Notes under the pieces: generated by a model
Database searches by the model: none
Seen by the model: only the letters and a program-made list of their open reading frames with translations
What the model was told of the DNA's origin: nothing
Source: an uncultured bacterium
GTDB lineage: Bacteria; Patescibacteriota; Minisyncoccia; Phycocordibacterales; UBA2100
Assembly (NCBI GenBank): GCA_903854215.1
Contig: CAINVT010000058.1
Span: 1-59,449 of the forward strand
DNA: 59,449 nt
Direction: 5' to 3'
In this document: positions 3,646-55,005 of the stretch, piece after piece
Position numbering within the stretch: position 1 is the first letter of the stretch
How the letters are laid out: every line of letters starts with the position of its first letter
Translations under genes and position numbers: made by a program

Positions 3646-4281
3646 CTAGAGCAAGCGTGTCTTGTCTAAGAGTACGAGATGCGGGAAATCGAGCGTATCG
3701 CGAATGAGACGATCTTGCACCGTCAGCCGGTAGCGAAATTCAGGCGTCGTGAATGCGGCGTAGCGGATCTCACGTCCGAAACTTTGTTCAAGTCCTTTGA
3801 GCGCCGTCTCGAGACGTTGCTTACTGAGACCGTCTGCCGCAAGCAAAAGATCGGCAGGGCGTGTCGGGTCGCCCATGAAATTGCCCGAGAGCACGACGAC
3901 GCCGAGTCGGCCGATATGCTTCAGTGCGGTCGTGATCGTATCGTATCGTGCGGGCGATACCTCATGCACAAAAGTAGATAACGCACGAAAATGTTCGAAG
4001 TCGGTATTCACTGTCCATACCGGCTCGGTCTTCTTTGTAGAATTTTTCTTCACCAGCTTTCCGTTCTGTAAGACGGGCATCGGCAATTCCTTACCTCTCG
4101 TGATGGCCGCTATGTGTTCAAGTTCTCGTAGTGCGCGACTTGCAATGCGCGGTGTAATGCCGGCCCGCTTGGCAGCAAGTACAAGGGTGAATGATTCGGC
4201 ATCATTGAATATAAAGATACGCAGCAGACGTGCGCGCGCCGTATCGCCGATAAGTTCCGCCAAAAAATCCTTGCTTTTCAT
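3646..4281 (-). CDS. conserved protein, N-terminal HTH-like plus degenerate nucleotidyltransferase-like domain
   Basis: 211-aa ORF; LSGNF..ADLLL and GREIRY..EF.YR resemble a minimal NTase fold; -10 TACTAT 6 nt upstream. Confidence 0.65.
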   Translation of the reverse strand: MKSKDFLAELIGDTARARLLRIFIFNDAESFTLVLAAKRAGITPRIASRALRELEHIAAITRGKELPMPVLQNGKLVKKNSTKKTEPVWTVNTDFEHFRALSTFVHEVSPARYDTITTALKHIGRLGVVVLSGNFMGDPTRPADLLLAADGLSKQRLETALKGLEQSFGREIRYAAFTTPEFRYRLTVQDRLIRDTLDFPHLVLLDKTRLL

Positions 4282-4308
4282 ATGCCGATAGTATCACGTG
4301 TCAGCCGC

Positions 4309-4356
4309 CAAAAGAAACCGGCCCCGACACAGGTGTGCCGAGGCCGGTTTCTTTTG
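4309..4356 (-). terminator. terminator of rplJL
   Basis: Long stem CAAAAGAAACCGGCC..GGCCGGTTTCTTTTG. Confidence 0.75.
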
Positions 4357-4367
4357 TTGCCCACAAA

Positions 4368-4676
4368 GTTCAGCGTTCGATAGTAAGTTGGATTACTTCA
4401 ACGTTACCTTCGTCGAAATCTGCTGATTTCGACATGATTCCCACATATGGGAATCACCACCCGGAAAAGTTACTTAAGAGTAACTTTTCCTCCAGGCCGG
4501 ACGCTACTGCGTCCGGCACGTTACTGAGCGTCGGGCCTTTGACGGCATCACGTTCAGCAAATGATTGTTGGATTATTTCAACGTTACCTTGGTCAAAAAG
4601 CTGCTGCTTTTTGACACTTCTCGGGCCAAGCCCTCGTCGCCACGGAAAAGTTACTTAAGAGTAACTTTTCCTCCAG
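4368..4676 (-). repeat. diverged 181-bp tandem unit containing copies of the rplL 3' end
   Basis: 34 bp identical at 4462-4495 and 4643-4676; GTTGGATTAYTTCAACGTTACCTT at 4387-4410 and 4567-4590. Confidence 0.9.
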
Positions 4677-5070
4677 CCTCTTCGATCTTCTTCTTCCATG
4701 CTTCTGCGTCTTCCTTCTTGACTGCAGGCTTGAGCATGGCAGGAGCAGATTCGACGAGTGTCTTCGCTTCGGCAAGTCCGAGCGCGAGCAACTCCTTCAC
4801 CGCTTTGATAACGGCGATCTTCTGTTCGCCGATCGCAGTAAGTTCAACATCGAACTCTGATTTCTCATCAGCGACAGCACCTGCTGCAGCCGGACCGGCA
4901 ACAGCGACAGCTGCGGCCGAGACACCCCACTTTTTCTCAAGTAACTTCACGAGCTCATTCGCTTCGAGGATCGTGAGCTTCTCCATTGCTTCGACAAGAG
5001 TCTTGAAGTGTGAAGGGACGACAACGTCCGCCTCCGCTCCTTCGACTTTCACTTCAGTATCTTCAGTCAT
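4651..5070 (-). CDS. rplL: 50S ribosomal protein bL12 (L7/L12)
   Basis: [27 protein letters not shown] and C-terminal [10 protein letters not shown]; ATG start at MTEDTE. Confidence 0.97.
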
Positions 5071-9896: not shown

Positions 9897-10723
9897 CCAA
9901 GCTCAGAGCTTGGTGATTTCTGTGGATAACTACAAAGCTCTGAGCTTTGTATATTCGGCATGTTTTTCGTGGACACGATGCGTTTCGGATTTGATGAGTT
10001 CATCGAGATCATCTTGTGCGTCAAAAAAATCGGGCAGCTCGTCGGCAAGGATGGCGCGTTCGGGACGTTCGTCGATATGGTCTTTGAAGCTCGAAAATCG
10101 ATATTCAGACAAGAATAGGCGCGCTTTCCTCGCGCAACGAATCCCCTTGTCTTTCCAATCGGATTGCAGAAGATCAAGCGGATTGAGATGCACGTAGGCG
10201 AACAGGTACCGAAAATACGATTCAGTGTCGATACGTTTGGATTGATATCTCCCCTGGAAAAGCGTGCCCGAGTGGTCATAGCGTGCATTGAAATACATCG
10301 AGTACGCACCGCAGATCTTTTGGAGAAATTGCTGGATCCCGTTGTCAGTTTTGGAACGCAAGACGAGATGAAAATGATTGGGCATCAGCGTGTACGCCAA
10401 AATGTCGACCAATGATTTTTCGCTATATTCGTGTTTGAAAATTTCCGCAAAACCCCTGCCCTTGAATCGTTTGGCGGAATATTTTGAGAGGACGTCCCGC
10501 ATCACCACGTGATCGCGTGTGTTGTACAGATAGAGCAGGAGTAGGAATCGCTCGCGATCTTCATCAGAAGTGAATATGTCATGCTTATGAGCACCGCGAT
10601 TGTAGACGTGGTAATTTTCTCCTTCAGCAAGCATCTGACCCCTAAGATACATCGGAAGATTGTAATCCTACAAAGCTCAGAGCTTTGTAGTTATCCACAG
10701 AAATTACCAAGCTCTGAGCTTGG
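9897..10723. mobile_element. RAYT (REPtron-like) element bounded by 55-bp inverted repeats
   Basis: 9897-9951 and 10669-10723 are reverse complements with one mismatch; each holds two AAGCTC-N-GAGCTT palindromes. Confidence 0.85.
9930..10652 (-). CDS. REP-associated tyrosine transposase (RAYT, Y1 HUH family)
   Basis: YHVYNRG, LMPNHFHL (HUH), GTLFQGRY, YVHLNP, YRFSS motifs. Confidence 0.93.
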   Translation of the reverse strand: MYLRGQMLAEGENYHVYNRGAHKHDIFTSDEDRERFLLLLYLYNTRDHVVMRDVLSKYSAKRFKGRGFAEIFKHEYSEKSLVDILAYTLMPNHFHLVLRSKTDNGIQQFLQKICGAYSMYFNARYDHSGTLFQGRYQSKRIDTESYFRYLFAYVHLNPLDLLQSDWKDKGIRCARKARLFLSEYRFSSFKDHIDERPERAILADELPDFFDAQDDLDELIKSETHRVHEKHAEYTKLRAL

Positions 10724-18301: not shown

Positions 18302-19297
18302 ATGCTTGAAACACCTGTCGCACTTTTCATATTCAACCGCCCCGAAGAAACGGCGCGCACGTTCGATGCGATCCGGGGAGCGCGACCGCGAAAACTTTTT
18401 ATCATCGCCGACGGTCCACGGTATCCCGAAGAGATACCGCTCTGCGAAGCGACTCGCGCCGTGACCGAGCACATTGACTGGTCTTGCGAGGTAAAACGTA
18501 ATTACACACCTATAAATATGGGGTGCGATCCGCGTGTATCTTCTGGAATTTCATGGGTGTTCATGCATGTCGACCGCGCGATCTTTCTTGAAGACGACTG
18601 CGTTGCCGATGGTTCGTTCTTCACGTTCTGCCAGGAACTTCTAGATCGATACACGAACGACACGCGCATACTTCTCATTGGCGGAACATCGTGTCAGGAA
18701 AAAAATCCCGATTATAAGGCAACTGCAAGCTACTATTTTTCCATGATGTCTATGGGCTGGGGCGCATATGGTACATGGCGGCGTGCATGGAGCCAGTACG
18801 ACTGGGACATGAAGCGCTGGCCGTCGTTGCGAGACTCCGGCGAACTCAAGCGGATATTCGACAATCCAGCCGCCTACGAGCGATTCGCACGCGTATGGGA
18901 TGAATATTATGAGGAAAAGATCCATCACACGTGGGATGGGCCATGGTCATTCGTACAAGCCATCAATGGCGGCCTGTGCGCCAATCCGGTGATCAATCTC
19001 GTCGAGAACATCGGGTTCAACGAGCGCGCATCCCATCAAAAGGTCAACCATCCTGGTTGGGTCGATCTACCGTCGAAACACATGACCTTTCCGCTCGTCC
19101 ACCCGTCCACCGTCACGCGCGATCGGGCTGCGGAAAATTTCGATTTCCTTTTTTTCTTTGGTATCGACAAAACCTCGTGGCAACGCATGATCCGACCGAT
19201 AAAAAATCGGTTTCCTACCTTGCACCACTTTGCAAAAGCATTGCGAACAAAGATTCGTACTGTTTTGCTTGCGAGGAAAGAGAAAAATCAATCGTAA
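18302..19297 (+). CDS. GT-A fold nucleotide-diphospho-sugar transferase
   Basis: PVALFIFNRP, IIADGPR, IFLEDDC, WGAYGTWRRAW, NLVENIGF. Confidence 0.85.
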   Translation: MLETPVALFIFNRPEETARTFDAIRGARPRKLFIIADGPRYPEEIPLCEATRAVTEHIDWSCEVKRNYTPINMGCDPRVSSGISWVFMHVDRAIFLEDDCVADGSFFTFCQELLDRYTNDTRILLIGGTSCQEKNPDYKATASYYFSMMSMGWGAYGTWRRAWSQYDWDMKRWPSLRDSGELKRIFDNPAAYERFARVWDEYYEEKIHHTWDGPWSFVQAINGGLCANPVINLVENIGFNERASHQKVNHPGWVDLPSKHMTFPLVHPSTVTRDRAAENFDFLFFFGIDKTSWQRMIRPIKNRFPTLHHFAKALRTKIRTVLLARKEKNQS

Positions 19298-54951: not shown

Positions 54952-55005
54952 GAGAGGGAGGCGCAAAAAAGACCCGCACGCGGGTCTTTTTTGCGCCTCC
55001 CTCTC
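54952..55005. terminator. long perfect hairpin between convergent nrdB and the MscS gene
   Basis: Perfect inverted repeat of about 25 bp with internal A6/T6 runs. Confidence 0.8.

Follow-up and report, generated by a model that had tools for sequence, protein, structure and literature searches.

The locus examined here raises the question of why the end of a ribosomal protein gene should be written several times over behind its own stop codon, and in more than one codon spelling. The window, a 59,449-nt stretch of DNA from an uncultured bacterium of the Patescibacteriota, carries on its minus strand an open reading frame for rplL (ribosomal protein L7/L12, 4651-5070), which ends in the peptide GGKVTLK* in a spelling here called X (GGA GGA AAA GTT ACT CTT AAG TAA, ending at 4651). 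KVTLK* occurs four times within 4393-4673, in two synonymous spellings and among six perfect hairpins of 9-12 bp. All features of this array lie on the minus strand and are described in the direction of the gene.

The in-gene tail forms the 5' arm of a perfect hairpin (P1a, 4644-4671, found by inverted-repeat search) in which the tail codons pair over 12 bp with a reverse-complementary anti-tail around a CTTA loop (GGAAAAGTTACT/AGTAACTTTTCC). It extends into unit 1 (E1), a 78-nt insert at 4586-4663 made up of the end of a replacement tail, the anti-tail, a pair of hairpins and a right end reading GACCAAGGT; its boundaries were set by a public contig joining 4664 to 4585 and by alignment with the relative L007. 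The first of the two hairpins is a small variable one (GGGC-TTG-GCCC, 4623-4633, read in the sequence and folded) and the second is a terminal AGCA-loop hairpin of the form GTC...AGCA...GAC with a perfect 10-bp stem (4592-4615, GTCAAAAAGC/GCTTTTTGAC), followed by a single C and the displaced tail Y1 (AAG GTA ACG TTG AAA TAA, 4590-4573), which together with TCCAAC occupies 4567-4590. Alignment showed Y1 with its TCCAAC to be orthologous to the in-gene tail and TCCAAC of L007. Next comes the body of an older insert (E0, 4496-4566), a 71-nt spacer which the same alignment showed to be common to L007 and which is closed by a 9-bp hairpin (4496-4517, GCCGGACGC-AGTA-GCGTCCGGC), a C and another tail copy. 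This copy (X2, 4470-4495) and its perfect 12-bp hairpin (P1b, 4463-4490) lie in a 34-nt block, 4462-4495, that repeats 4643-4676 exactly.

The second block opens into unit 2 (E2), a 77-nt insert placed at 4406-4482 by analogy with unit 1, its boundaries being taken from alignment of both units and not from an empty site. Unit 2 has its own variable hairpin (4435-4456, TGATTCCCA-TATG-TGGGAATCA) and a perfect 9-bp terminal AGCA-loop hairpin (4412-4433, GTCGAAATC/GATTTCGAC), followed by a G and the displaced tail Y2 (AAG GTA ACG TTG AAG TAA, 4410-4393; 4387-4410 with TCCAAC). Since Y1 and Y2 each precede TCCAAC they form a 24-nt repeat with 23 of 24 positions identical. A terminator-like 23-bp inverted repeat with A/T runs on both sides (4309-4356, no strand assigned, folded) separates the array from a downstream gene of 211 aa (3646-4281, minus strand), the same neighbour that follows rplL in several relatives. 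The initial annotation had described the in-gene GGKVTLK* within a hairpin, an alternative tail at 4590-4573 in which every sense codon is synonymous, an exact second tail with hairpin, a fourth tail at 4410-4393 and AGCA-loop hairpins with different, fully paired stems, and all of these were found as claimed.

The 28-nt and 24-nt patterns of the array each matched twice in the window where 0 matches were expected from 100 shuffles. Six of the 25 hairpin records of the window (perfect stem of at least 9 bp and loop of 3-5 nt, a few hairpins being counted twice with different loop lengths) fall in 4412-4671, and folding of the 391-nt array stretch gave z = -11.6. Chance is excluded as the source of the array features. 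When the 401-nt region was compared with the rest of the 1.1-Mb genome (blastn-short) as a possible dispersed repeat, it matched only itself. The longest perfect hairpin in the window lies elsewhere, at 54952-55005, with a stem of 25 bp and a 4-nt loop.

In 14 comparisons of an in-gene tail with a displaced one, a single pair was identical and 13 pairs differed at 1-6 of 18 nt, with the peptide and stop kept in 10 of the 13. The two tail pairs of the window differ at 6 and 5 positions, all of them silent, an outcome with a probability of at most 1e-4 under random change. Silent-only differences indicate that both copies evolved as working tails. Judged by their codons, the two spellings are formerly or currently working rplL tails of different lineages and not the product of a drifted duplication.

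Matches to rplL were present in 53 of 61 genomes searched, and the gene and its surroundings were compared across 29 further genomes, of which 24 belong to the same genus and 5 to other families. A further in-frame tail copy was found 85-259 nt past the stop in 11 of the 29 loci (10/24 in the genus and 1/5 in other families). The layout was the same in all 11 loci, with the in-gene tail followed by its own reverse complement, hairpins and a second tail, and in each the anti-tail fits that species' own codon choice. In L030 the protein ends in KVELK, where other loci have KVTLK, and the extra copy also reads KVELK. In the remaining 18 loci the stop leads on towards a terminator or the next gene and no second complete tail is present; among these an anti-tail or hairpins are still found behind the stop in L003, L004 and L023 and a decayed tail remnant in L007. 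The order in L007 is rplL, Y-type tail, TCCAAC, spacer, hairpin, decayed tail remnant and terminator, which on alignment is the backbone of the window minus units 1 and 2. TCCAAC would be the resident flank in the window, as in L007 and L020. The number of units thus varies among relatives from 0 to 2 or more, which answers a question posed by the initial annotation.

Read-level evidence came from assembled contigs of public runs, in which stretches lacking cover and the low shares of runs X4-X9 carry no weight. In an RNA library of peat, one 181-nt contig matches 162 nt of rplL in the window at 98% identity and then joins 4664 straight to 4585-4567 (junction ...GGAGGAAAAGT|AACGTTGAAATAATCCAAC), with unit 1 exactly absent and the joint at a shared GT. 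It carries rplL with a single tail, AAA GTA ACG TTG AAA TAA TCCAAC. Three of the 162 positions differ from the window, which indicates that the contig derives from another strain. It is an empty site for unit 1, although, with only 19 nt beyond the joint and an RNA library as its source, it may represent either a DNA allele or a processed transcript. A second contig, from the likely source sample, carried a variant hairpin module within unit 2.

When AGCA-loop hairpins were sought across this genome, near-identical modules came to light directly downstream of tRNA genes. The terminal-hairpin pattern matched 120 stretches in the genome collection, and of the 80 examined 36 had a true hairpin and 44 were rejected as chance hits, mostly in high-GC genomes. 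True-hairpin stretches came from genomes labelled as Saccharibacteria, Kaiser-, Adler-, Taylor-, Nomura-, Campbell- and Niyogibacteria, other Paceibacterota and four Elusimicrobia MAGs. A 63-nt core common to these stretches was modelled and is here called R1. It consists of RGCCGGAG, a hairpin, GAGGCGGGG and a long hairpin with a bulged A, ending in GUGACC. No credible Rfam match was obtained in the window region, 13 rplL loci or 15 R1 loci, where the search returned only tRNA, tmRNA and a sub-threshold L10 leader.

The R1 structure was assessed with 62 sequences aligned to the model, so that the alignment is biased towards the model; 92.5% of cells were paired and 16 of 23 pairs were changed on both sides (204 cells). 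The covariation score was 0.418 against 0.126 in shuffles (0/500 reached the observed value) and at most 0.082 with slid partners, so the covariation check suggested by the initial annotation gave a strong signal in the core of these fuller relatives. One G.U pair was present in 61 of the 62 sequences. As this pair would be an A.C mismatch on the other strand, it is the sense strand that folds, whether as RNA or as single-stranded DNA.

Seven R1 sites were found in this genome. The core occurred in 6 of 151 genomes sampled across the phylum, this one included, with 2-7 copies each, and five further genomes held 33, 13, 9, 4 and 2 copies, the 33 copies being in a genome of 1.1 Mb. The distribution, which takes in Patescibacteria and Elusimicrobia, is patchy and multi-copy. 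A viral origin was set aside, since of 15 IMG/VR stretches that matched the core pattern a single one gave a weak hit to the model (21.5 bits).

Full R1 cores were detected at the rplL site of L015, L016, L020 and L030 (59-74 bits, E 1.7e-15 to 6.3e-12). The window's own units scored 9.4 bits against the model (E about 4 over 97 kb), which is not significant. They share the 3' plan of R1, namely a variable hairpin, GAG, a GUC...AGCA...GAC hairpin, one base and a target copy, and the same plan was seen in L014 and L024. The terminal hairpin of unit 1 has the layout of the R1 3' hairpin, and the series of R1-type terminal hairpin, one base and target end is found twice (4592-4615, C and 4590-4573; 4412-4433, G and 4410-4393). 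An anti-target of the R1 type, lying between the proximal copy and the core, is likewise found in the 12-bp hairpins at 4644-4671 and 4463-4490. From this layout and from the full members at the same site in relatives, the window's units are probably short, degenerate relatives of R1. A GTGG in front of the hairpins had been explained as a remnant of Gly codons; fuller relatives have the linker RGCCGGAG at that place, so GTGG is more likely a degenerate linker.

The same elements were found at the ends of other genes. In this genome the last 14 nt of 5 of 45 tRNA genes are repeated 125-227 nt downstream, behind hairpin modules, and two more tRNA genes have modules without a clean repeat. The layout at tRNA genes is constant. 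A loop links the tRNA 3' part, which begins in the T-loop, to its reverse complement, and after these come the conserved linker and hairpins, a long terminal hairpin ending in GACC and a second copy of the 3' part. In 12 of the 20 R1 matches examined the 3' part of the upstream tRNA was repeated after the core, from T-loop position 57 to the last tRNA base, and such a repeat was also found in 8 of the 36 true-hairpin stretches. At tRNA-Val, T59 of the closest relatives' orthologues is shared with the distal copy, a mild hint as to which copy is native. The R1 core was found at more than ten tRNA species and also behind a tmRNA gene.

Protein-coding genes other than rplL also carry it. On G000 C35 (about 18900-19200, minus strand), outside the window, R1 lies in the 3' end of a zinc-finger (topoisomerase-like) gene whose last 22 codons (...KTIPERCSDK...HNPHKL...*) are written twice with mostly silent differences, and in another MAG it is found at a short protein tail. 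In L045 and L100, from Kaiserbacteria and Saccharibacteria MAGs, R1 is at the 5' end of a family-1 glycosidase gene, and the N-terminal codons (...FP[DE]GFLWG) are present twice, upstream of the element and in the gene. The R1 core in L049 lies within an open frame of 280 codons (UvrC-like), which is uninterrupted.

We consider it likely that the array arose when small integrative elements, rich in hairpins and without an ORF, inserted at least three times in succession into the final codons of rplL. Direct observation covers the architecture, its presence at further genes and in further genomes, the presence/absence polymorphism, the silent-only tail differences and the strong single-strand structure in the core of the fuller relatives, and the features of a site-specific integrative element are found here, with direct repeats of the gene end flanking the insert, the gene intact and empty sites in L007, in the contig that joins 4664 to 4585 and in 18 of 29 loci. 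An older event, E0, common to L007, would have been followed by two younger siblings, E1 entering the working tail and E2 the displaced one. Each element would carry near its left end a replacement gene end acquired from another lineage, hence the other synonymous codons, and then its reverse complement, hence the perfect tail hairpin, while its right end would be the terminal hairpin abutting the crossover point. Conservative recombination between the carried copy and the chromosomal tail would leave the gene intact with the element's tail. The proximal copy, which pairs perfectly with the element's reverse complement, would then be element-borne, and the distal copy would be the displaced resident tail with its resident flank, so that repeated events would pile old tails downstream. 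The identical 34-nt block of units 1 and 2, set beside their unrelated middle hairpins, requires sibling elements or gene conversion.

A recombinase acting in trans on a circular form of the element may have carried out these events by site-specific recombination, with the hairpin module as a putative recognition determinant. A circle of unit 1 would join its right end GACCAAGGT to TACTCTTAAG; no circular or excised form was seen among the assembled contigs of the public runs. It is improbable that the reverse-complement segment and a three-helix core constitute a guide module, as RNA or folded single-stranded DNA, which pairs with the target end and programmes the recombinase in trans. If true, this would explain how one near-invariant 63-nt core serves more than ten tRNA species, tmRNA, rplL and other gene ends, and it would represent a nucleic-acid-guided integration system outside the IS110 family.

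Other explanations of the array were weighed against successive insertion. The initial annotation had raised the concern of a strain chimera, and that the assembly joined the rplL 3' regions of two strains in one contig we find barely credible. A 34-nt exact repeat does break short-read graphs, and the concern stands in so far as no single contig of the public runs compared spans the whole array, but the array is tiled by overlapping contigs of three studies (4245-4568 in X3; 4499-4672 and 4643-5041 in X1) and the same tandem layout is present in the independent assemblies L030, L014 and L020, which makes an assembly chimera unlikely. It is highly improbable, too, that a unit behaves as an intron-like RNA element, removed from the transcript so that both tails are translated in different molecules and are both under coding selection. 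The sole contig without unit 1 is from an RNA library and the skipped stretch can be written as GU...AG; that contig, however, derives from another strain, the unspliced gene is already complete, unit 2 lies past a stop codon and yet both tails are intact, and the 77-78 nt units match no Rfam intron or ribozyme family.

A functional, vertically inherited rplL 3' UTR, acting in stability, termination or translational coupling and duplicated in tandem with its tails kept for alternative RNA pairing, would account for the very stable fold (z = -11.6), for stems compensated between units and between species and for a tail hairpin that always fits the host's own codons. The initial annotation had offered such a structured unit under selection at rplL alongside repeated insertion. 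We regard it as very doubtful, as it leaves the patchy, multi-copy and multi-target distribution unexplained: the structure is missing from 18 of 29 relatives' loci and from a 98%-identical strain, it is patchy across the phylum, and the same modules occur at tRNA, tmRNA and other genes. RNA pairing also does not explain the silent-only differences because the distal tail has no partner. Variable unit number, empty sites, silent-only differences and other gene ends hit all favor the alternative put forward in that annotation, repeated insertion replacing the rplL 3' end with the peptide kept. Insertion might instead have proceeded by transposition or retroposition with target duplication, in which a structured RNA or single-stranded DNA core enters a staggered cut, the anti-target is made by fold-back copying and the product spreads by homologous recombination after DNA uptake, this spread supplying the foreign, silently different proximal tail. 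An anti-target specific to each copy across a great many different targets (33 copies in a single genome of 1.1 Mb), one anti-target that complements about 35 nt of native right flank where the direct repeat is only 10 nt, an invariant G.U pair pointing to a single-stranded sense-strand form and RVT_1 in 7 of 11 R1-bearing genomes all speak for this route. We nevertheless think it unlikely, since the tRNA repeats always run from the T-loop to the last base, which agrees more readily with a carried gene end than with a staggered cut, RVT_1 was not found in the 33-copy genome, and the anti-target mostly fits the proximal copy and not the distal one.

If the units were inserted by site-specific recombination as proposed, the enzyme would be supplied in trans. 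The units contain no ORF, no recombinase was found linked to the elements, and none was found within 1.5 kb of rplL in 30 loci. The large serine recombinase family PF07508 was present in 9 of 11 R1-bearing genomes as against 83 of 145 R1-negative genomes of the phylum sample (88/151 overall), with no cis linkage, and one complete genome with weak R1 matches is without it. A large serine recombinase may tentatively be named as the best candidate. In two cases an island with a large serine recombinase separates an R1 copy from its tRNA, by 15.3 kb in one and 4.3 kb in the other, and no further R1-bracketed recombinase islands were found in G140, G186 or G212-G215. In G117 a third, degenerate target copy is present about 60 nt upstream of the anti-target segment, before the R1 module, which indicates that the island is a later neighbour insertion and not the parent of R1. 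Such islands were therefore rejected as R1 parents and are better read, at least in G117, as later insertions at the same tRNA. The 15.3-kb stretch (L189; G000 C13, 2043-17544) is bounded by tRNA-Trp and by an exact 14-nt repeat of the 3' end of that tRNA. Its genes include two helicases, an IS481-like transposase, sigma-like genes and a large serine recombinase, and the R1 module is at its far end. In G117 (L192, 148-1821) the 557-aa serine recombinase frame runs 57 nt into an opposite-strand tRNA-Pro, crossing the island junction.

Other candidate movers were also considered. The Y1/HUH transposase PF01797 was rejected as mobiliser because three of the six R1-bearing genomes in the phylum sample (G117, G140 and G186) gave no match to it, and an assignment to the IS200/IS605-derived or REPIN class was dropped because target ends are duplicated and Y1 was not found in the same three genomes. 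This genome has nine PF01797 genes, and the hairpins that flank them are unrelated from one gene to the next. One of them, a 240-aa IS200-like or RAYT-like ORF, is in the window (10188-10490, minus strand) and is flanked on both sides by hairpins of the CTACAAAGCT type (9931-9951 and 10668-10690), the other eight having different ones. A reverse transcriptase as mover was discarded on the distribution of RVT_1 given above, with 7 of 11 R1-bearing genomes positive and the 33-copy genome among those without a match.

The closest known parallel is the SCC elements found at rlmH. Their site is the 3' end of rlmH and the repeats are synonymous variants of its last codons; SCC elements stack in tandem, and remnants without a recombinase exist. 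The likeness lies in the short target site, the flanking direct repeats, the tandem stacking and the synonymous gene ends. SCC and SCCmec are described as integrating at a short site targeted by a serine recombinase (Ccr) and as flanked by direct repeats holding the site (PMC8772726). SCC elements contain genes and measure kilobases, whereas those described here are 77-260 nt, ORF-less, built of hairpins and located at rplL, tRNA and tmRNA.

Islands and prophages at tRNA and tmRNA genes of the T-loop sublocation resemble them in having a repeat from the T-loop to the 3' end, a gene restored by the element's copy and tandem pile-up; the classification of tRNA integration by sublocation is said to go back to Williams in 2002. 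The present elements differ in having no integrase in cis, a size of about 100 nt, a single core found with more than ten tRNA species, and an extra copy of the target in reverse complement. They share with MITEs, REPINs, Rickettsia palindromic elements and BOX elements a small, non-coding, hairpin-rich, multi-copy and non-autonomous nature, but conserved terminal inverted repeats and a target duplication of fixed length are lacking and the flanks are copy-specific and reproduce a functional gene end. The MITE class was rejected because the flanks change from copy to copy, following the target. We also take there to be a likeness to integron attC sites, the CTX phage attP and IS110 bridge RNAs in structure being conserved over sequence, in a bulged base and in a fixed wobble pair (attC compared by eye), and, presumably as in IS110 bridge RNAs, a target-complementary segment lies beside a structured module at the end of the element. 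The complementary segment is here 10-35 nt, in contrast to those systems, and mostly fits the element's own copy.

A full-text search, which did not extend to subscription journals, returned no description of such elements. What appears to be new is their ORF-less scale of 77-260 nt, a conserved core with a defined fold, the extra copy of the target in reverse complement, the variety of targets found with a single core and the presence of rplL among them. In ultra-small bacteria an essential ribosomal protein gene would thus be a recurrent landing site, its last codons overwritten repeatedly with the protein unchanged, and the elements of about 100 nt at tRNA, tmRNA and protein-gene ends would make up a widespread, undescribed structured family. 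Such a family could be used as a marker of gene flow among uncultured Patescibacteria and would provide a test case of how tiny non-autonomous elements find and repair their targets, and it may also represent a new motif of structured RNA or DNA.

A second, unrelated core type was found at rplL in L005, L006, L009, L012, L020 and L022, without an Rfam match. It reads ...AAGGGGTCGGGRAAC...GTTYCCCG...GGAG...AACCGNGGGTT... and has the same layout of target, anti-target, core and target. In this genome it is present at C25:3600-3860, C69:2980-3210 and C8:42700-42899, behind two tRNA genes and a terminator. Two further repeated hairpin motifs were noted in G000. The first, CCACGTCCKTAA-TGCTCAC-AGCA-GTGAGCA...TATGAACGAGGCCTAA, has four copies (C10:14714, C11:7591, C59:3906 and C69:19383). 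The second, GCGCGAAACGGA-GGGATTTTTC-AGCA-GAAAAATCCC-GAC, has three (C13:30479, C33:9128 and C64:8244), which are weak R1 matches (E about 0.04), and one of its sites is about 200 nt from the only tyrosine recombinase gene of the genome (C64:8470-9009).
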